From the NCBI GenBank assembly GCA_049671145.1, contig JBATUM010000088.1, positions 13,801 to 77,800 of the forward strand: a DNA stretch of 64,000 nucleotides, read 5' to 3'. The position numbers and the translations under genes were made by a program. A model generated the notes under the pieces. That model was not told where the DNA came from and searched no databases. It saw only the letters and a list, made by a program, of their open reading frames with translations. The stretch comes from Promethearchaeia archaeon (GTDB lineage: Archaea; Asgardarchaeota; Lokiarchaeia; Sigyniarchaeales; SOKP01). This document shows, in pieces, positions 37,614 to 61,608 of this stretch. The stretch's first letter is position 1. Every line of letters begins with the position of its first letter.

Positions 37614-38069
37614 ATGAGTCTAAAAGCCCAAAAAAGAATGGCAGCAGAAATCTTAAAATGTGGCGAAAATCGGGTCTATTTTGATCCTTATTTAATTGAT
37701 GAGATTCAATTAGCTATAACAAGAGAAGATATTAGGAGTTTAATTAAAGAAGGTATAATAAGAAAAAAATATAAAAAAGGAATCTCAAAATTTAGGAAAA
37801 AGTTACATCATCAGAAGAAGAAAAAAGGAAGGGCTAGGGGTTTAGGAAAGAGAAAGGGGTCTAAATATGCTAGAAGTCCAAAGAAAAAAGCCTGGATGAA
37901 GAGGATCCGCCCTCAAAGAAGAGAATTAAAAAAATTGAGAGATCGAAAATTAATTACAGCTGCTATTTATCGAAAATTATATAAAAATGCTAAAGGTGGA
38001 ATGTTTAACAGCGTTGCTCAGATGAATCGGTACATTAGAGAGAAAGAATTATTAAGAAGAGGAAGGTAA
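37614..38069 (+). CDS. rpl19e: Ribosomal protein eL19
   Basis: 151 aa. LKAQKRMAAEILKCGENRVYFDP, KGRARGLGKRKGSKYAR. Confidence 0.9.
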   Translation: MSLKAQKRMAAEILKCGENRVYFDPYLIDEIQLAITREDIRSLIKEGIIRKKYKKGISKFRKKLHHQKKKKGRARGLGKRKGSKYARSPKKKAWMKRIRPQRRELKKLRDRKLITAAIYRKLYKNAKGGMFNSVAQMNRYIREKELLRRGR

Positions 38070-38071
38070 TA

Positions 38072-38665
38072 ATGGCTAAAGGACCAATATATAGAAGAGC
38101 GTTTAGAAGAAGAGTAGTTGGCAAAACAGATTATCATAGGAGATTAAAGTTACTTAAATCAAAAAAATTAAGAATTGTAATAAGAGCATCAAATAACCAT
38201 ATAATTGTTCAACTTATTCAATCTAAAATTGGAGGAGATAAAGTCTTATCTTCTGCATTTTCTAAAGAATTAAAAGATAAATTTGGCTGGAAAGCAAGTA
38301 CAGGTAATATTCCTGCTGCGTATTTAACGGGATATCTTGCAGGCTTAAGAACTAAGAAAAAAGATATTTCAGAAGCAATTCTTGATTTAGGAATATTCTA
38401 TCATCGTAATAGATTACTTGCGGCATCTAAAGGGATAATAGATGCTGGTTTAGAAGTTCCATATAATGAAAAATTCTTTCCAGAAAACTTGGAAGAAAGA
38501 ATCAAGGGTGAACATATCGAAAAGTATGCTAATATTTTAAAAAATGAAAATCCTGAAAAATATGAGAAAATATTTTCAGGTTATTTAAATAAAGTAAAAA
38601 TAAATCCATTAAAAGTTAGTCAAATGTTTTCCTCGACATTGAAAGCAATGGAAAATAGTGTTTAA
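38072..38665 (+). CDS. rpl18: Ribosomal protein uL18
   Basis: 197 aa. RRRVVGKTDYHRRLKLLKS.KLRIVIRASNNHIIVQL, GNIPAAYLTGYLAG. Confidence 0.9.
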   Translation: MAKGPIYRRAFRRRVVGKTDYHRRLKLLKSKKLRIVIRASNNHIIVQLIQSKIGGDKVLSSAFSKELKDKFGWKASTGNIPAAYLTGYLAGLRTKKKDISEAILDLGIFYHRNRLLAASKGIIDAGLEVPYNEKFFPENLEERIKGEHIEKYANILKNENPEKYEKIFSGYLNKVKINPLKVSQMFSSTLKAMENSV

Positions 38666-38679
38666 ATTAGTGAGCTAAT

Positions 38680-39294
38680 ATGAGTCGATTAAGAAATATT
38701 GAAGAATCATGGGTTCCAAGGACGCGCCTTGGTGAGCTTGTTAAGCAGGGATTGATTACCCTAGATAAAATATTTGCAAATAATCTTGTTGTTAAGGAGA
38801 AAGAAATAATAGATGTTCTTCTCCCACAATTACGTGAAGATGTTGTAAAAATAGCTATGGTTCAGCAAATGACTGCTAGTGGTCAGCGATCTAAATTCAA
38901 GGCAGTGGTGCTTGTGGGTGCCGAAGGATTTATAGGTGTAGGGGCCGCTAAGAGTCGTGAAGTGGGTCCTGCGATAAGGAAAGCAATTGGTAAAGCTAAA
39001 TTAACTGTTATTCCTATTCTTCGAGGATGTGGTAGTAAGGAATGTGGATGTGGAGGTACCCATAGCATTCCATTTAAATTAAATGGCAAATGTGGTTCAG
39101 TCAGAATTCAGCTCATTCCTGCTCCAGCAGGAGTAGGATTAGCATGTGCAGATAAGGTAAAACAATTATTACGATTAGCTGGTATTGAAGATATATGGAG
39201 TAAAACATTTGGTGATACTAGGACAAGTGAAAATTTAGTTAAAGCTACATTTAATGCCCTAAAAAATGCTCATAAATTTAGTTTCAATTTATAA
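38680..39294 (+). CDS. rps5: Ribosomal protein uS5
   Basis: 204 aa. WVPRTRLG..V, GQRSKFKAVVLVGAEGFIGVGAAKSREVGPAIRKA, GVGLACADKVKQLLRLAGIEDIW. Confidence 0.9.
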   Translation: MSRLRNIEESWVPRTRLGELVKQGLITLDKIFANNLVVKEKEIIDVLLPQLREDVVKIAMVQQMTASGQRSKFKAVVLVGAEGFIGVGAAKSREVGPAIRKAIGKAKLTVIPILRGCGSKECGCGGTHSIPFKLNGKCGSVRIQLIPAPAGVGLACADKVKQLLRLAGIEDIWSKTFGDTRTSENLVKATFNALKNAHKFSFNL

Positions 39295-39301
39295 ATAATA
39301 A

Positions 39302-39847
39302 GTGGTTAATATGATGGCTAAAAACGAGTCAATTACAAAAAAGAAACCGAAAATTAAAGAATCGCGACCTCCAGTATTATATTTTGCTATTAGAATAAGA
39401 GGCGCTCCCGGAATGAGAAGAACTATTCTTAATACTCTACAAATGCTAAGACTGCATAAGGTAAATCATGGTGTTCTTATTTGGGGAGAAAAAAGTTATA
39501 TGGGAATGCTCAATAAATGTAAAGATTATATCTCTTATGGGGAAATTGATGAGAAAACACTAATCAGACTTTTGAGAGTAAGAGGGAGAGTAGAAGGAAA
39601 TAAACCACTTAAAGATGAAAATATTGAGAATTTGACAAAATACAAAAGTATCAAAGATATTGCTAAAGCTTTATTGAAGGGTGAAATACAATATAAAACC
39701 AAAGACATGAATAAAATTAAACCTGTATTTCGATTGCATCCTCCCCGAAAAGGTTATCGAGGTTCTATCAAAAAGCATTATGGAGAAGGCGGTAGTTTAG
39801 GATATGTTCGAAGTTTTATAAATGAATTAATCCATAAGATGATTTAA
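39302..39847 (+). CDS. rpl30: Ribosomal protein uL30 (L7e-type)
   Basis: 181 aa. YFAIRIRGAPGMRRTILNTLQMLRLHKVNHGVLI. GTG start; ATG at 39311/39314 is possible. Confidence 0.85.
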   Translation: MVNMMAKNESITKKKPKIKESRPPVLYFAIRIRGAPGMRRTILNTLQMLRLHKVNHGVLIWGEKSYMGMLNKCKDYISYGEIDEKTLIRLLRVRGRVEGNKPLKDENIENLTKYKSIKDIAKALLKGEIQYKTKDMNKIKPVFRLHPPRKGYRGSIKKHYGEGGSLGYVRSFINELIHKMI

Positions 39848-39867
39848 AGATTAAAGGTGTAATAAAT

Positions 39868-40347
39868 ATGAGAAAATTTTCAAAAAAAATAAGAAAAAAG
39901 AGAGGAACTCGAACATGTGGCTATGGTAGAGTAGGACAACACCGTAAAACTGGACAAAGAGCAGGTCGCGGAAAAACTACTCAGTGGAAAAAAAGCAAAA
40001 AATCTTATTATCTTAAACAAAAAGAACTAGGTTTTCCTGATCCTGATTGGAAAATGGGCAAAAAAGGTTTTAAAAGACCCCAAGATATAACACGCATTTA
40101 TAAAACCAATACTCTAAATATCAAAGATTTAGATCAAAAAATTGATAAATTAGTACTAGAAAATATTGCATCTAAAACTGGAAATACCTATATTATTAAT
40201 TTAAATGACGTTAATATTCAAAAAATTTTAGGTCGCGGAGAAATTAATAAAAAGATTAATGTCTCTGTCAAGAGAGCCTCAAAACAGGCCATGGAAAAAA
40301 TAGAGGCTGCTGGGGGTAAAATAACACTTTTACTTGAAACAGAGTAA
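39868..40347 (+). CDS. rpl15: Ribosomal protein uL15
   Basis: 159 aa. KKRGTRTCGYGRVGQHRKTGQRAGRGK and the C-terminal KQAMEKIEAAGGKI. Confidence 0.9.
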   Translation: MRKFSKKIRKKRGTRTCGYGRVGQHRKTGQRAGRGKTTQWKKSKKSYYLKQKELGFPDPDWKMGKKGFKRPQDITRIYKTNTLNIKDLDQKIDKLVLENIASKTGNTYIINLNDVNIQKILGRGEINKKINVSVKRASKQAMEKIEAAGGKITLLLETE

Positions 40348-43108: not shown

Positions 43109-43531
43109 TTATTTAGTTTCAATTTTCTTTAAAACAGGTTCCATTTCTTTGAAAGATTTGCGAATTTTATGAAAGTAATAGCCTAACTTATAGCCTTTTT
43201 TACAATTAGTAAAAAGCATGAAATTATTTTCAGCATCACCAACAATAATAATTGTATATCCCTTTACGCCTCTAATCACGATTTCTCTTAATTCACCTTG
43301 ACCAAGTCCAGTACTTATCTTTTCTCCTAAGGAAATTAAAGTTGCGGGACTTGCGCTATATACATCAGCAACGATATCAGCAGTTTCAGAACTAGCAATT
43401 CGCAATCCTGTTTTTGATACTAAAGCAGTTCCTTCAAGATCTGTGGAACTCTCTAATTGTTCTAAATTACGCATTAACTCATCTAGAATTTCTTGATCGA
43501 TATCAATTTCAGAAGTATGTATTCCTTCCAT
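43109..43531 (-). CDS. Roadblock/LC7 (MglB-like) domain protein
   Basis: 140 aa. LEGTALVSKTGLRIASS...YSASPATLISLGEKIS...LREIVIRGVKGYTIIIVG is the typical Roadblock alpha-beta-alpha pattern. The start is 27 nt downstream of the selB stop on the same strand. Confidence 0.65.
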   Translation of the reverse strand: MEGIHTSEIDIDQEILDELMRNLEQLESSTDLEGTALVSKTGLRIASSETADIVADVYSASPATLISLGEKISTGLGQGELREIVIRGVKGYTIIIVGDAENNFMLFTNCKKGYKLGYYFHKIRKSFKEMEPVLKKIETK

Positions 43532-43558
43532 TATTACTACCTCAGTTAATAATATAAA

Positions 43559-45010
43559 TTAATTTTGAACATTTAAATCTTTTTTAGATTTCAATTTAAA
43601 ACTTCTTAATTCTTTCAAAATGACGTTATCCCCTTTTTTTATAATATTTTTAACACTTAAAATCCCCACAATTACAGATCCTTTTGTTCCAAATGGACTA
43701 GTAATTTTTGTAAAAGGAGGCTCTAATTTTCGCCCTACAATTTTTTTAGCGCCTATTAGACTTTGTGCTAAACCACTAGAAATTATACCTTGAGCATGTG
43801 TTGGATTTTGGATAATCCCCTTTTTTATTTTATATTTATAAAGTAATGGCGGTTCTTGATGTATTTTTGTTAACTCTGCCGATCCCAATATCCTTAAAGT
43901 TGTTGGAGGCAAATCTAATCGACTTAATAACATGATAGTTTTTTCTTTACCAATTAAGATTCTCTCATTTAACCATAAAAAAGCTCGAAAATTATTTAAA
44001 TCATTTTTTATGCTCATTTGAATTTTCTTTCCGTTGAATTCATAATAAGGGTATATAAATCCTGCTGTAGTAAACATTCCTATTGTTACATGGAGTTGAG
44101 TACCAAAATGGGTTTCTGCTTTAAATAATTTGTTTTTATTTACTTTCACTTCAATTAAATCACAGTAATCAAAAGCACCTTTATTGTCTGTTGCATAACA
44201 CCCCCTGTATATCTTCTTTGCGTCCAATCCTTTAATATTAATCCCAATTCTATCACCCGCTTTTGCGATTTTTACTTCTTGATGAAAGATTTGAATTGAT
44301 TTAACTCTCCCTGAAATTCCTAAAGGCATTATATATATTTTTTGATTTAATTCTAATTTCCCCCTTAATAATGTGCCCGTTATTATTGTCCCTCTCCCTT
44401 TTATCGAAAAATGGTGATCTATGGGTATTTTGATACTCCCTCTGAGTTCTCTTTTTATTTCAAGACCTTTAATTTTTTCTAGTATTCCACCTTTTAATTT
44501 TTCAAATCCTATTTTTTCTTTGGCAGATACTGCAAATATAGGTATTTGTGCACCATAAGATGTTGATTGAAAGAAATTTCTTGTTTTTTCCATTTCCTGC
44601 TTCATATCACCTTTAAATAGGTCTATTTTATTAAGTACAACTATGATATCTTTAATATTTAACGCCTCTACCATTATTAAATGCTCACCGGTTTGAACTT
44701 GAGGTCCTTTATTAATGTCTATCACGATTATAGCGCAATCAATTATTTCTACCGAAGAAGCACTTATTTTTATTAAATCTGCATGACCAGGACCATCAAC
44801 CAATGATACTAAATAATCATCCAATACAAAACTTGAAAACCCTAAATCGATAGTTATACCTCTTTGTTTACTTTGTGGATGAGCATCAATCCCAGCAGTC
44901 GATATTATTTCACTTAACACAGAAGCTATCGCAGTTTTACCACAATCAATGTGTCCAAACAATCCAATATGGATCGGAATTAATTTCTCAACGTCAATCA
45001 TAAGAATCAC
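43559..45010 (-). CDS. selB: Selenocysteine-specific elongation factor SelB (archaeal type)
   Basis: 483 aa. G1 GHIDCGKT, QSKQRGITIDLGFSSF, G3 DGPGHADLI, GPQVQTGEHL, G4 NKIDL. These closely parallel methanogen SelB as I recall it (ESQKRGITIDIGFSAF..DAPGHADLI..GPKTQTGEH). The size fits aSelB. tRNA-Sec and SepSecS lie 4 kb away. Confidence 0.8.
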   Translation of the reverse strand: MILMIDVEKLIPIHIGLFGHIDCGKTAIASVLSEIISTAGIDAHPQSKQRGITIDLGFSSFVLDDYLVSLVDGPGHADLIKISASSVEIIDCAIIVIDINKGPQVQTGEHLIMVEALNIKDIIVVLNKIDLFKGDMKQEMEKTRNFFQSTSYGAQIPIFAVSAKEKIGFEKLKGGILEKIKGLEIKRELRGSIKIPIDHHFSIKGRGTIITGTLLRGKLELNQKIYIMPLGISGRVKSIQIFHQEVKIAKAGDRIGINIKGLDAKKIYRGCYATDNKGAFDYCDLIEVKVNKNKLFKAETHFGTQLHVTIGMFTTAGFIYPYYEFNGKKIQMSIKNDLNNFRAFLWLNERILIGKEKTIMLLSRLDLPPTTLRILGSAELTKIHQEPPLLYKYKIKKGIIQNPTHAQGIISSGLAQSLIGAKKIVGRKLEPPFTKITSPFGTKGSVIVGILSVKNIIKKGDNVILKELRSFKLKSKKDLNVQN

Positions 45011-45193: not shown

Positions 45194-46075
45194 ATGCCAA
45201 AGTATTGCGTTTATTGCGGAAATCCCTTAAAATCGACAGATAAGTATTGTATAATATGCGGAAAACCAGTATTAAGAGATGTACAAAAACCAAAAGCTGT
45301 TCAAAAACCAAAAGCTGTTCAAAAACCAAAAGATGTTATAAAAGAAAAAGTAAGAGAGATAAAAGGTGAAGATTCTTCATCCGAGATTGAAGAATACCCC
45401 GTAGAAGAAGTCGAAATTGAAGAGAAAGTAGAAAAGAAGAAAAAAGCTAGAAAAGAAGTAAAGGTAGAAAAACCACTACCATTTGAAGTAAAAGAACAAA
45501 TGATCCTTTATATTGAATACAATGATATGCAATTGAATAAAAAATTGTTAGTTGAGAAGTTAAAAGAAATTCAAAAATCTTTAAAAGATCCTCGTTATGA
45601 TGTAGATCAGGAATTTAAAAAATCAATTAATGTAAAAATTGAAGCGATAAGGACACTAATCAATGAACTTAAGCAAAATGAAATTGAAGTTAAACAAAAA
45701 ATGGTGGAACCATTTATTGTCCAGAGAATAAAGGATGACATTGATAAGAGAATTTTTCAACTCAAGAATTTAACTAAAGAATTTAAATTACATAAGATTA
45801 ATAAGGAGACTTTCGAATCTCTTAGAGAAAAATACAAACAAGAGAAAACAGATTTTGAGAATGAAAGAAAAGACTTAATATCCGGTATGAAGCTATGGAT
45901 AAAAGAATTGAACATGGAAAAGTCAGATATTAAAGCAGAGAAAAACCTCAATAAGGGTAGATTTTCAGCTAAGGAAATTGAAGAAGAAGATTATAAAGAA
46001 AAAGATAAAGAATTTGAAGTAAAACTTAAAAAGATTGATGTGAAAATTACTACTTTAGAAGATCTTATTAAATAA
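45194..46075 (+). CDS. Zinc-ribbon plus (QKPKAV)x3 repeat plus long coiled-coil protein
   Basis: 293 aa. N-terminal YCVYCGNPL....KYCIICGKP zinc ribbon, then a tandem hexapeptide repeat, an acidic stretch, and ~200 aa of heptad-like Lys/Glu-rich helix. Confidence 0.55.
   Translation: MPKYCVYCGNPLKSTDKYCIICGKPVLRDVQKPKAVQKPKAVQKPKDVIKEKVREIKGEDSSSEIEEYPVEEVEIEEKVEKKKKARKEVKVEKPLPFEVKEQMILYIEYNDMQLNKKLLVEKLKEIQKSLKDPRYDVDQEFKKSINVKIEAIRTLINELKQNEIEVKQKMVEPFIVQRIKDDIDKRIFQLKNLTKEFKLHKINKETFESLREKYKQEKTDFENERKDLISGMKLWIKELNMEKSDIKAEKNLNKGRFSAKEIEEEDYKEKDKEFEVKLKKIDVKITTLEDLIK
45284..45337 (+). repeat. 3 x 18-bp tandem repeat CAAAAACCAAAAGCTGTT (third copy has GAT for GCT)
   Basis: Read directly; units at 45284-45301, 45302-45319 and 45320-45337. 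Coding: QKPKAV QKPKAV QKPKDV. Confidence 0.9.
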
Positions 46076-46269: not shown

Positions 46270-46572
46270 TTAATCGTATCTCTTCATTTTTCCTATAGAA
46301 AGAGAATCCTCTAAAAAGCCTTTTTTCTGGTATATTTTTTCCTGAGATTTTCGGAATTTATTAGCTTCCTTGTAATGATTTTTACAAAGATAAATTTTAT
46401 TTTGTTTATTCTCGTTATATCTTAAAGTTGCTTTTTCTACATATGATTTCCATTTACTCTCGGAAAGAGATCTTACTGCTACTTCATTACACCCTTTCAC
46501 AGAACATTTTTTTCCTTTACTTATTGTTCCGCTCAAATCCCTTTTTTCTTTTAGTTCCTTTGGGAGTTTCAA
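46270..46572 (-). CDS. Small basic Cys/His protein (putative zinc-binding), unknown function
   Basis: 100 aa. C-x3-GC ... C-x2-H arrangement (KKCSVKGCNEVA...IYLCKNHYKE). Confidence 0.45.
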   Translation of the reverse strand: MKLPKELKEKRDLSGTISKGKKCSVKGCNEVAVRSLSESKWKSYVEKATLRYNENKQNKIYLCKNHYKEANKFRKSQEKIYQKKGFLEDSLSIGKMKRYD

Positions 46573-46656: not shown

Positions 46657-47364
46657 ATGGATTCTTTAAACTTAGTATTTGATGAAAACTTTATTCGTAC
46701 AAAATTATTTCCTTGTGATTCACCCTCTAGAATAAAACTAAGAGATGATTTCTTTACAAATTCAGCTGTTCTATTCTGCATTATTCCCTATAAAGAGAAA
46801 CCCTATGATTTAGTGTTAATTCATCGCTCAAATCGTGGAAAGAGACACAGGGGGGAAATATCATTTCCGGGTGGTAAAATCGAACCTGATGATATCTCAT
46901 TGAAAGCCACTGCCTTAAGAGAAGCTGAAGAAGAAATTGGATTACCAAGAGAAAATGTAAAAATATTAGGTTGTTTAGACGATTTTCCGACTATGACTAA
47001 ATTTGTAATTACTCCTTATGTTGCCATCATCAATAAGGATCAAAAATTAATAAAGGATGACAGAGAAGTTCAGAAGATATTAAAAATCCCAATAGATTTT
47101 TTTATAGGAAAGAAGAATTTTAGAGAACAAGCAGTGGATATCGATGGCAATAAATTCCCTGTTTTTTACTTTAACTATAAAGATGATGAAAGTAAACAGA
47201 CTTATACAGTTTGGGGAGCAACAGCCTATATGATATCTACTTTTATCGAAATTATTTATGGATTAACTATGTCAAACCTAGGTTTGAGACGATTTAAATT
47301 AGAAAAAATAAAAGATCTTAAAGAATATATTAAATATAGGGACCAAATTACAAAAAAATTTTGA
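46657..47364 (+). CDS. Nudix hydrolase, CoA pyrophosphatase-like (NUDT7/8/NudL type)
   Basis: 235 aa. Nudix box GGKIEPDDISLKATALREAEEEIGL preceded by LIHRSN......GEISFPGG, as in CoA diphosphatases. Confidence 0.7.
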   Translation: MDSLNLVFDENFIRTKLFPCDSPSRIKLRDDFFTNSAVLFCIIPYKEKPYDLVLIHRSNRGKRHRGEISFPGGKIEPDDISLKATALREAEEEIGLPRENVKILGCLDDFPTMTKFVITPYVAIINKDQKLIKDDREVQKILKIPIDFFIGKKNFREQAVDIDGNKFPVFYFNYKDDESKQTYTVWGATAYMISTFIEIIYGLTMSNLGLRRFKLEKIKDLKEYIKYRDQITKKF

Positions 47365-47392: not shown

Positions 47393-48070
47393 ATGGATAA
47401 AATGGATTTTATCTTTAATGAGAAAAAAATTGCAGGTAGGTTAAAACAATTAGATTCTCCTGAACGAATTTCAATGCATCATGAATACTTTGTAAATTCT
47501 GCTGTTATATTCTTAATAATTCCATATCAAGAAAGACCATATGATCTAGTCCTAATTCGAAGAACCAAACAAATAAATGATAAGCATTCTGGAGAGATGT
47601 CTTTTCCAGGGGGAAAATTTGATCTCAATCAAGATAAATCGTATTTAGATACAGCTTTGAGGGAATTGAGAGAAGAATTAGGAATTCCAGGGAATAATGT
47701 GACCATATTGGGATGTATTGATGATCATCTCACCCCTAAAGGATTCATTATAACTGCTTTCGTAGCCTATATCAATAAAGACCAGAAAATGATTAAACAA
47801 GTAGGAGAAGTCGAAGAGATCGTGAAAATTCCAATTACTTTTTTTGCTAATAAGAAGAATTTTAAAGAAAAAACTTATAAACTCAAGGAAGATTTAATTG
47901 GAGTTGGCAAATTCAACTATAGGTCTCCAAATAATAAAAGATATGTAATATTTGGAGCCACATCCCACATTATTGTAAACTTTTTAGATACTATATACAA
48001 TTTAGGTCTAATGATTCTGGGTTGCAGACGAATCACATGCGAAGATATTAAGGATAAAATCATTAATTAA
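47393..48070 (+). CDS. Nudix hydrolase, CoA pyrophosphatase-like (tandem paralog)
   Basis: 225 aa, colinear with the upstream paralog. LIRRTK...GEMSFPGGKFDLNQDKSYLDTALRELREELGI. Confidence 0.7.
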   Translation: MDKMDFIFNEKKIAGRLKQLDSPERISMHHEYFVNSAVIFLIIPYQERPYDLVLIRRTKQINDKHSGEMSFPGGKFDLNQDKSYLDTALRELREELGIPGNNVTILGCIDDHLTPKGFIITAFVAYINKDQKMIKQVGEVEEIVKIPITFFANKKNFKEKTYKLKEDLIGVGKFNYRSPNNKRYVIFGATSHIIVNFLDTIYNLGLMILGCRRITCEDIKDKIIN

Positions 48071-49249: not shown

Positions 49250-49342
49250 GGCCCTTGACGGTTAGAGTGGTCTCTGACGCTGGGCTTCAAACCCAGTTAT
49301 CCTGCGGAGGGATAGGGGTTCGATTCCCCTCGAGGGCCGCCA
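49250..49342 (+). tRNA. tRNA-Sec (anticodon UCA at 49287-49289), 9/4 fold, CCA encoded
   Basis: 9-bp acceptor stem GGCCCTTGA/TCGAGGGCC (one G-U). 7-bp D stem GTTAGAG/CTCTGAC with 4-nt loop TGGT. 6-bp anticodon stem GCTGGG/CCCAGT, loop CTTCAAA. Long variable arm TATCC-TGCGGAG-GGATA. 4-bp T stem GGGG-TTCGATT-CCCC. Discriminator G followed by CCA. Confidence 0.9.
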
Positions 49343-49359
49343 ATTTTTATAATACTAGC

Positions 49360-50736
49360 GTGATAAATTTGATTGATTTTAATAAAATTATTGATTATTT
49401 TAAAAGCACACCTATCCCTCAAAATATGTTGAATAGAGGGCAAGTTGTTTTAAATGAGTTTTTAAATCCTATTAAAATTTTATTTGAGCAGAAAAATGTT
49501 CCTATGGAACCTTGGAGTGATGAGCAAATTAAATTTTTCTTACTCGCCCTCTCGAATATGGATACAGATAAAGATTTTAAAGCAGCAAGGGTAGGTGAAA
49601 GAGAAGCAAGAATTGCATCTAAAATACATTTAAAAACCTCAGCAGGATTCTGTCATGGTGTAGGCAGAAGTGGTTTTCTGACGGCTCCTCAACCAAAGGC
49701 TCCCGGTGGCTCAATTATGTATGAAATAACTAATTACTTAGCGAGAGACTTTCTTAAAAAATTTGGTTTACCTAATATAAAAAGTGCTATAACTGTGCCG
49801 TTATGTACAGGAATGTCTTTAGCTTTATGCATCGGAGCGCTTAGACCAGATTGGAATATTAAAGACTTAAATAATAAAAGAACTGTTCTTGTTCCTCAAA
49901 TTGATCATAAATCTCTTATTAAGGGACTGGAACTAATGGGTATAAAAAGAAAAACTATCGAAGGTAAGGTATTTGGTGATGCAGTAAGGATTCCAGTTGA
50001 AGATATTAAATTAAGTATGGATAAAGATTGTTTTGCGGTTATTTCAGTGACAAGTTTCTTCCCTCCTCGCGAGCATGATAACATCAAAGAGATTAGTAAA
50101 TTTGCTAAAGAAAATAATTTGGTTCATATCGTAATTAATGCATATGGGGTTCAAAGTTCAGAATGGATGGATTTAATTCGTTCAGGAATCGATGCAGGAA
50201 GAGTAGATGCAATCATACAATCAACTGATAAAAATGTACTTTCTCCAGTAGGTAGTGCTATTATTGCTTCCCCAAATAAGGAAATAATAACTAAAATTAG
50301 TCAAGCGTATGCAGGACGCGCTTCTGCTACGCCTGTAGTAAATTTTTTAATCTCTATGCTCTCTTTAGGTACTAAAGGATATCAAAGATTAATGATTAAT
50401 CAACAGAAAAACAGAAAATTATTAGAAGAAAAGATGAATGAAGTTGCTAGCAAATTAAAAGAAAGAATTTTAGATGTAATTAACCCAGTAGCCGTAGCAA
50501 TGTCTTTAAAGAATTTGAAAAAAGAACAATTATCTAATTTAGGAGGAGCTTTATATAATTTAAGAGTCACGGGACCTAGGGTCTATAATCCAGAAGAAAA
50601 TGTTTTTGGAACGTGTTGTTCAAATTATTTAACACCTTATATAGTAATGAATGCCGCAATAGGCGCAACCTCTGAAGATATAGTCTTAGCAGTTGAAAGA
50701 TTTGAAAAGGCATACGCTCAAATTATTCAGAAATAA
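49360..50736 (+). CDS. O-phosphoseryl-tRNA(Sec) selenium transferase (SepSecS)
   Basis: Colinear with methanogen SepSecS as I recall it: LNEF, MDTDKD, RVGEREARI.SKIH, SAGFCHGVGRSG, PQPKAPGGSIMY, PLP-lysine context QSTDKNVLSP, YAGRASATPVVN, LYNLRVTGPR, YIVMNAAIG. The track ORF start (49255) lies inside tRNA-Sec. I place the start at the in-frame GTG at 49360 (VINLIDFN, compare MLDFN); TTG 49369 or ATG 49426 are alternatives. Confidence 0.85.
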   Translation: MINLIDFNKIIDYFKSTPIPQNMLNRGQVVLNEFLNPIKILFEQKNVPMEPWSDEQIKFFLLALSNMDTDKDFKAARVGEREARIASKIHLKTSAGFCHGVGRSGFLTAPQPKAPGGSIMYEITNYLARDFLKKFGLPNIKSAITVPLCTGMSLALCIGALRPDWNIKDLNNKRTVLVPQIDHKSLIKGLELMGIKRKTIEGKVFGDAVRIPVEDIKLSMDKDCFAVISVTSFFPPREHDNIKEISKFAKENNLVHIVINAYGVQSSEWMDLIRSGIDAGRVDAIIQSTDKNVLSPVGSAIIASPNKEIITKISQAYAGRASATPVVNFLISMLSLGTKGYQRLMINQQKNRKLLEEKMNEVASKLKERILDVINPVAVAMSLKNLKKEQLSNLGGALYNLRVTGPRVYNPEENVFGTCCSNYLTPYIVMNAAIGATSEDIVLAVERFEKAYAQIIQK

Positions 50737-61494: not shown

Positions 61495-61608
61495 GCAAGC
61501 GTAGCGTAGCCTGGTAACGCGCTGGCTTGGAGAGGAATAAAAACCAATTTCTACCCCCATTTAGCCAGTGTGGGCAACCACTCGGGGGTTCGAATCCCTC
61601 CGCTTGCG
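61495..61608 (+). tRNA. tRNA-Ser (anticodon GGA at 61529-61531) with a 30-nt intron at 37/38
   Basis: Acceptor GCAAGCG/CGCTTGC. D arm GCGT-AGCCTGGTA-ACGC. Anticodon stem CTGGC/GCCAG. The loop TTGGAG|A is interrupted by 61533-61562. Long variable arm TGTGGGCAACCACTC (class II). T arm GGGGG-TTCGAAT-CCCTC. Discriminator G. Mature length 84 nt. Confidence 0.7.

Follow-up and report, generated by a model that had tools for sequence, protein, structure and literature searches.

A selB gene and a Roadblock/LC7 gene lie side by side in the 64,000-nucleotide window analyzed here (Promethearchaeia archaeon, contig JBATUM010000088.1, positions 13,801 to 77,800 of the forward strand), and the same pair was recovered across the Lokiarchaeia. 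Among the 99 Roadblock loci that were informative, which are not all independent, selB stood directly next to Roadblock in about 96, and the adjacency was observed in six of the eight Roadblock sub-groups with readable context. The reading we prefer, to which we give an even chance, is that the GTPase is a canonical SelB and that the Roadblock protein is conserved in position but has a main partner that is not specific to selenocysteine (Sec). The adjacency would then mostly reflect synteny inherited as part of a block that rearranges slowly, and the Roadblock protein would serve one or more partners without a specific role in selenocysteine decoding. SelB would act canonically, as expected from homology, by binding GTP and Sec-tRNA(Sec) and delivering the latter to UGA codons on the ribosome. 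Synteny is preferred because of the extreme conservation of the Roadblock protein, its survival without the selB block and its absence from other Sec-using archaea. The present evidence does not establish a new regulatory system.

When the SelB alignment was searched against species-representative genomes, 16 archaeal selB loci (L004-L019) were recovered. Eight were Loki-type loci (L004-L011; SelB 65-70% identical) with a Roadblock ortholog directly downstream on the same strand, and in L012 (SelB 47% identical) the Roadblock gene was adjacent and convergent. The other seven (L013-L019; Thor-labelled, two unassigned, one Promethearchaeota-labelled, and methanogens) had no Roadblock gene in the available flanks. 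Neither tblastn nor the family hidden Markov model found one within the flanks (up to 8 kb) of the Thor-type, the two unassigned Asgard-like or the methanogen selB loci. From the Roadblock side, 219 orthologs were clustered into sub-groups and their contexts were fetched; one locus (L177, sub-group g3) was uninformative, the Roadblock gene lying at the contig end. Gene orientation split cleanly by Roadblock sub-group. SelB was followed by Roadblock on the same strand in g1, the window's type (L001, L002, L004-L011), and in g2 (L090). The genes stood tail-to-tail in g4, g5, g6 and g9; in g9, represented by Ca. Lokiarchaeum ossiferum (CP104013/CP163304) and Ca. Harpocratesius repetitus, the 3' ends were 20 nt apart or overlapped by 4 nt. 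selB was absent within 6-10 kb in g7 (two assemblies, L091 and L092) and in the ~1 kb available in g8 (one short contig, L096). A metagenome scan with the Roadblock alignment added 80 loci, of which 63 were co-directional, 11 were convergent, six were too short and none was without selB. These joined L004-L011 and L090 on the co-directional side and L012, L084-L089 and L093-L095 on the convergent side. Conservation in relatives, which the original prediction (made from the sequence alone) had put forward as a check, was thus seen in nearly all Lokiarchaeial loci sampled but did not extend to Thor-type and methanogen selB, where the available flanks had no Roadblock. A full-text literature search found nothing linking SelB or selenocysteine in Asgard archaea or Lokiarchaeota to Roadblock, and neither of the Lokiarchaeial EFsec papers searched mentions a Roadblock neighbour. 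No published report of the class-wide adjacency was found.

The gene order around the pair was also conserved. In the window's clade (g1), the whole block was collinear from the ribosomal-protein operon to SepSecS, well beyond the pair, and in g4, g5, g6 and g9 the order PolB-Rad51-x-Roadblock-SelB-NUDIX was collinear. NUDIX and hyp100, a small basic zinc-binding protein of 100 aa, were adjacent in all six loci examined for this, which represent each selB-bearing sub-group other than g2 with one or two loci. In g7, the SelB-NUDIX-hyp100-zinc-ribbon unit was missing while DUF4430, PIG-L and Roadblock remained, indicating that Roadblock behaves as a member of the left-hand block and not of the Sec unit. 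selB, NUDIX and hyp100 were not found in L091 and L092 (6-10 kb) or in L096 (1 kb), where the invariant motifs of Roadblock were intact, and the fetched contigs of the two g7 assemblies (GCA_964523445.1 and GCA_964623665.1) contained no Sec genes and no tRNA-Sec. A single-gene inversion keeps its neighbours automatically; the convergent state therefore shows only that co-transcription is dispensable. It had been claimed that Roadblock genes in Asgard genomes normally neighbour genes of Ras-superfamily GTPases. This does not agree with the cultured Lokiarchaeon Ca. Prometheoarchaeum syntrophicum MK-D1, in which Roadblock genes as a rule do not share operons with small GTPase genes (PMC10933270; Tran et al. 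2024), so that an unlinked Roadblock partner would be normal in this group. From 37.6 to 50.7 kb, the window contained no small GTPase gene, and SelB was the only adjacent GTPase.

The 140-aa protein matched Pfam Robl_LC7 (PF03259) with 44.7 bits against a cut-off of 23 (E-value 1.1e-11). An AlphaFold2 (AF2) monomer model built with 44 homologs had a mean predicted local distance difference test score (pLDDT) of 82 and a predicted template modelling score of 0.76. Its topology was a-bb-a-bbb-a with a long C-terminal helix (H13-29, E33-39, E44-47, H62-75, E83-88, E91-97, E104-110 and H113-139), i.e., the alpha-beta-alpha sandwich, five-stranded sheet and C-terminal helix of the full-length type. 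Foldseek placed the Asgard Roadblocks 9JUE and 7F8M best (about 28% identity), followed by LAMTOR2 and MglB, with probability 1.0. Pfam, model and fold search thus agreed with the original prediction that this is a Roadblock/LC7 protein, and the protein is of the full-length type. Presumably it works as a homodimeric binding platform. An exhaustive HMMER search over 1.84 billion cluster representatives showed a discrete ortholog group: orthologs were at least 58% identical, whereas the next relatives were at most 42% identical and mostly longer. The group was labelled Lokiarchaeial wherever a source name existed. Orthologs outside the Lokiarchaeia were rejected on the basis of this identity gap (58% to 42%), and the labelled relatives at ~40% were Baldr- and Freyarchaeial proteins and Lokiarchaeial paralogs. 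The motifs STDLEGTA, GYTII and KLGYYFH were invariant in the group. The solved Asgard Roadblocks (Thor-RB, 7F8M; Roadblock, Roadblock2 and Roadblock3 of MK-D1, 7YH1, 9JQ8 and 9JUE, respectively; Tran et al. 2024) come from the same superphylum and share the full-length architecture, but an identity of about 28% makes them paralogs and not orthologs. The window's group is set apart from them by STDLEGTA, KLGYYFH, higher conservation and its position beside selB. The protein is a new and well-defined addition to a known family and the ortholog of no solved protein.

Roadblock was more conserved than SelB at all 65 loci compared (65/65), with a mean identity of 76% against 63%. Such constraint on a 140-aa protein without an assigned role is unusual, and a constraint stronger than that on SelB would fit other or additional partners. 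Across the window's clade, Roadblock was 77-87% identical, compared with 66-84% for the ribosomal proteins L19e, L18, S5, L30 and L15.

On its sequence, the 483-aa GTPase is a genuine archaeal SelB/EFSec. Pfam detected GTP_EFTU (E-value 4e-32), GTP_EFTU_D2 and aSelB_III (above its cut-off), and all G motifs were intact (G1 GHIDCGKT at residues 19-26, G2 RGITI, G3 DGPGH, G4 NKID, G5 SAK). The best solved-structure match was M. maripaludis SelB (4AC9), covered by one phmmer alignment of residues 13-470 against 20-480 (E-value 8e-87); human eEFSec (2e-48) and bacterial SelB and EF-Tu (about 1e-30) were weaker. When the window protein was aligned with 13 homologs and with M. maripaludis SelB, to which it was 39% identical, D198, H199, R254 and F58 were invariant. 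The corresponding residues in M. maripaludis are Asp191, His192 and Arg247 of the aminoacyl (Sec) pocket and the lid residue Phe51 (PMC3037878). The rest of the Sec system, tRNA-Sec and SepSecS, lay about 4 kb from selB on the other strand. The full-length alignment, the retained pocket residues and the nearby tRNA-Sec and SepSecS bear out the earlier assignment to archaeal SelB. Against M. maripaludis SelB and Lokiarchaeota EFsec, the likeness covers the four domains, the G motifs, the Sec pocket and the company of tRNA-Sec and SepSecS; methanogen and Thor-type SelB differ by His at the G1 position where the window has Cys. In Lokiarchaeum, EFsec and tRNA-Sec likewise lie on opposite strands, about 6 kb apart (Mariotti et al. 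2016). Lokiarchaeial EFSec is an already known kind of protein, described since 2016. The SelB of sub-group g6 was 653 aa long, with ~150 aa inserted into domain III, between residues 322 and 342 of the window protein.

Could the GTPase instead be the SelB-like paralog aSelBL, with another function, so that the pair is unrelated to selenocysteine? We consider this very improbable. In its favor, the top NCBIfam match, TIGR00475 (selB), scored 240.4 bits, 1.85 under the curated cut-off of 242.25. However, EF-1 alpha followed at 131 bits, the lead over the EF-1 alpha and EF-Tu families was about 110 bits, and only positions 1-294 of the 581-position model were matched, which is expected because archaeal SelB lacks the bacterial C-terminus. 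aSelBL lacks the C-terminal domain, has deletions in the G domain and occurs in genomes without Sec (PMC3037878), whereas the window protein has G1-G5 intact, aligns with M. maripaludis SelB up to and including domain IV and is encoded 4 kb from tRNA-Sec and SepSecS. Its Lokiarchaeial ortholog was moreover classed as EFsec by phylogeny (PMC4989117, PMC11227280). The paralog was rejected on the presence of domain IV, the intact G motifs and the adjacent Sec genes.

The G1 Cys had been pointed out as an oddity, His being the residue expected of translational GTPases. Among the 120 closest SelB homologs, the residue after Asp was Ser (GHIDSGKT) in 113 and Cys (GHIDCGKT) in seven, and GHIDSGKT is the human eEFSec sequence as well. 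This makes the Cys a minor variant within a substitution by small residues that runs through the lineage and is shared, as Ser, with human eEFSec. Across the fetched archaeal loci (L004-L019 and L084-L176), methanogen and Thor-type SelB had His, and all Lokiarchaeial SelBs had Ser, Ala or Cys. A functional anomaly at this position was rejected on these grounds. The small residue matched Roadblock adjacency perfectly, with His in all selB loci without a Roadblock neighbour; this correlation is fully confounded with phylogeny.

selB and Roadblock are probably co-transcribed in the window's clade, judging from the shared strand, the 27-50 nt spacers and a Shine-Dalgarno-like motif. In the window, the spacer carried GAGGT 7 nt 5' of the Roadblock ATG; a TATA-like TTTATATT was also present. 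AGGTG or GAGGT stood at the same distance, in spacers of 27-50 nt, in most of those co-directional loci among L001-L011 whose spacers were read. The coordinates, sizes, strand and 27-nt gap originally given for the two genes were correct by the list of open reading frames (ORFs); both ORFs are in one frame. The true selB start is likely the ATG at 45001, three codons past the GTG, which gives 480 aa and is the start chosen by gene callers in near-identical contigs. The apparent operon that had been proposed holds as an operon-like layout in the window's clade, but not for the group as a whole: the arrangement was convergent in four of the six selB-adjacent Roadblock sub-groups.

The other genes of the Sec neighbourhood, which is of the kind typical for the class, followed selB to different extents (coordinates are in the table). 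Homologs of hyp100 (75-119 aa) were present up to about 2.5 kb from selB in full-length loci of every selB-bearing Lokiarchaeial sub-group, the exception being L090 (g2), in which neither hyp100 nor NUDIX was detected. hyp100 also accompanied selB in the Thor-type loci L017-L019; it belongs to the Sec neighbourhood and tracks selB more widely than Roadblock does. It matched no Pfam family, its AF2 model was weak (pLDDT 64) and no significant PDB match was obtained. An Asgard-only hypothetical protein is often found near secS, efSec and pstk (Huang et al. 2024), and by distribution it may correspond to hyp100, not to Roadblock. In a search for a link between hyp100 and that protein (MBD3157761.1), the accession was found neither in the supplements nor among the cluster members read. 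As a candidate for a missing Sec factor, hyp100 is better supported than Roadblock.

NUDIX genes were close to selB in full-length loci of most Lokiarchaeial sub-groups. In g4-g6, a NUDIX gene directly preceded selB on the same strand, with a 26-nt overlap in L088, and there the NUDIX-selB link is more operon-like than the Roadblock-selB link. Every Lokiarchaeial sub-group had homologs of the 293-aa zinc-ribbon protein (26-62% identity) no more than a few kb from selB. In the window, tRNA-Sec was directly upstream of SepSecS. The mechanical SepSecS ORF began with a TTG at 49255, inside the tRNA-Sec gene, and the TIGR03531 match (471.5 bits) started at its residue 54; given this overlap, the true start is probably an ATG near 49399. 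ARAGORN found no tRNA-Sec beside SepSecS in L004 and L006. The tRNA-Sec of Lokiarchaeum carries an intron (Mariotti et al.), and an intron might explain these misses. A separate Rfam tRNA match over 114 nt at 61495-61608 (+) was not called by ARAGORN, suggesting an intron-containing tRNA gene. Thor-type clusters had a hyp100 homolog and an AIR-synthase/SelD-like gene upstream and lacked Roadblock; in L017, a convergent gene after tRNA-Sec was read by eye, from its P-loop, as a putative PSTK.

Table. Coordinates of the selB-Roadblock pair, of its neighbours in the window and of related features in the fetched loci (L numbers).
Feature	Coordinates	Strand	Remarks
Ribosomal proteins L19e, L18, S5, L30, L15	window 37614-40347		3-6 kb from the Roadblock gene
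Roadblock/LC7 gene	window 43109..43531	-	140 aa, ATG start; Pfam Robl_LC7
selB-Roadblock spacer	window 43532..43558	-	27 nt, AT-rich
selB/EFSec	window 43559..45010	-	483 aa from GTG start; four domains including archaeal C-terminal domain IV
293-aa protein	window 45194-46075	+	N-terminal zinc ribbon, PKAVQK repeats, long charged coiled-coil-like tail; divergent from selB
hyp100	window 46270..46572	-	small basic zinc-binding protein, 100 aa; C-x4-C...C-x2-H invariant
NUDIX hydrolases	window 46657-47364, 47393-48070	+	two tandem paralogs
tRNA-Sec	window 49250..49338	+	anticodon TCA; ARAGORN; Rfam RF01852 62.1 bits against gathering threshold 47
SepSecS	window 49399..50736	+	O-phosphoseryl-tRNA(Sec) selenium transferase; Pfam SepSecS E-value 6e-112
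selB of g6	L093:466-2427, L094:8502-10463, L095:2287-4248	-	missed entirely by precomputed Pfam annotation
hyp100 homologs	L017:5622-5849, L018:3073-3300, L019:5701-5922
hyp100 homologs	L084:11233-11559, L089:9848-10183, L094:11991-12350
NUDIX homologs	L088:8891-9694, L089:8974-9678, L094:10502-11359
Thor-type Sec cluster	L017:7992-12327		SelB-SepSecS-(216 aa)-tRNA-Sec; also L018, L019, L015

Several points weigh against inherited synteny as the explanation of the pair. The adjacency is nearly complete (the 96 or so loci in six sub-groups given above) and persists down to 40-44% SelB identity. The outer neighbours vary around it, with DUF4430, SKI-zinc-ribbon or PIG-L on the Roadblock side and zinc-ribbon or NUDIX on the selB side. 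Roadblock proteins are in general GTPase regulators and platforms. About 86% of genomes in the Roadblock-bearing class use Sec (PMC11227280). Conversely, if the lineages without the adjacency had lost Sec altogether, synteny would be strengthened as an explanation.

A rival idea, to which we give a minor though real chance, is that Roadblock is a Lokiarchaeia-specific accessory of SelB. A Roadblock dimer would dock on the SelB G domain, as MglB does on MglA, or on domain IV, where it would adjust the nucleotide state of SelB or bring SelB to the ribosome or a SECIS (selenocysteine insertion sequence)-bound complex. The pair survived inversion as well as changes of its outer neighbours, the spacer in the window's clade is operon-like with a conserved Shine-Dalgarno-like motif, and the SelBs adjacent to Roadblock all have Ser, Ala or Cys at G1 where the others have His, a contrast that phylogeny confounds. 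Archaea have no known SECIS-binding or SelB-recruiting factor. However, the convergent order in four of the six sub-groups means that co-expression is not built in, g7 and g8 retain Roadblock without a nearby selB, and the Thor-type and methanogen Sec loci do without Roadblock. In all 65 comparisons, Roadblock evolved more slowly than SelB, its supposed client. The GTPase of SelB and eEFSec is activated by the ribosome, and these proteins are not known to need an exchange factor; both points count against a Roadblock accessory.

Known systems resemble the pair in part. Bacterial MglA-MglB also has a Roadblock-fold gene beside a GTPase gene, and by fold the window protein was matched to MglB with probability 1.0. 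The GTPase there is small, Ras-like and usually encoded adjacently, whereas here it is a translational GTPase of 480 aa, and the window Roadblock is 14-18% identical to MglB. MglB serves its GTPase as a GTPase-activating protein or guanine nucleotide exchange factor. The orientation of the window's pair is also not conserved across relatives. Ragulator is a platform for Rag GTPases and is built of Roadblock heterodimers, and the Rag GTPases bear a Roadblock domain of their own. What the window protein shares with it (LAMTOR2/3 and LAMTOR4/5) is a Roadblock fold that, as in LAMTOR2, has a C-terminal helix; the window differs in having a single Roadblock gene and a SelB without a Robl_LC7 match in Pfam. 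In eukaryotes, SBP2 is the SECIS-binding protein that recruits eEFSec, and it is defined by an L7Ae kink-turn RNA-binding domain. Pfam found no such RNA-binding (L7Ae-like) domain in Roadblock, Robl_LC7 being its sole match, and the likeness to SBP2 is confined to a hypothetical adaptor role. The missing RNA-binding domain speaks against an accessory and makes a strict SBP2-like role unlikely. The statement in the original prediction that no archaeal SBP2 is known agrees with the literature, which knows no SBP2 homolog in Asgard archaea (PMC4989117, PMC11227280). As a dedicated partner of SelB, Roadblock would be the first protein of its fold to regulate or recruit a translational GTPase, and part of the machinery that couples the eukaryote-like SECIS elements of Lokiarchaeia to SelB without SBP2; we consider this possible but on the whole doubtful.

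Roadblock might also work with other products of the neighbourhood and not with SelB, for example with hyp100, the NUDIX hydrolases or the zinc-ribbon coiled-coil protein, in the handling of Sec-tRNA or selenoprotein mRNA. We consider this improbable. Roadblock, SelB, hyp100, NUDIX and zinc-ribbon genes did occur within a few kb of each other in selB-bearing Lokiarchaeial loci that were long enough, hyp100 stands with selB in Thor-type loci too, and an Asgard-only protein near Sec genes has been described (Huang et al. 2024). Yet g7 lacks the rest of the set and keeps Roadblock, the Thor-type clusters have hyp100 and no Roadblock, and NUDIX and hyp100 were undetected in L090 (g2).

How archaeal SelB is directed to particular UGA codons is a long-standing question: archaeal SelB does not bind SECIS, and Lokiarchaeia have eukaryote-like SECIS elements (PMC4989117, PMC11227280). 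A Roadblock gene beside selB in nearly all sampled Lokiarchaeial loci is a concrete and cheaply testable candidate. The roughly 100 adjacent gene pairs recovered can supply paired alignments for complex prediction, and the pair is present in the cultured Ca. Lokiarchaeum ossiferum and Ca. Harpocratesius repetitus. If only synteny underlies the adjacency, the operon reading does not generalize, the seemingly odd G1 residue is a trait of the lineage that eEFSec has too, and hyp100 (46270-46572) is the better-supported Sec-linked unknown. If instead Roadblock does act on SelB, translation factors would join the small GTPases as targets of Roadblock regulation, in the archaea most closely related to eukaryotes.

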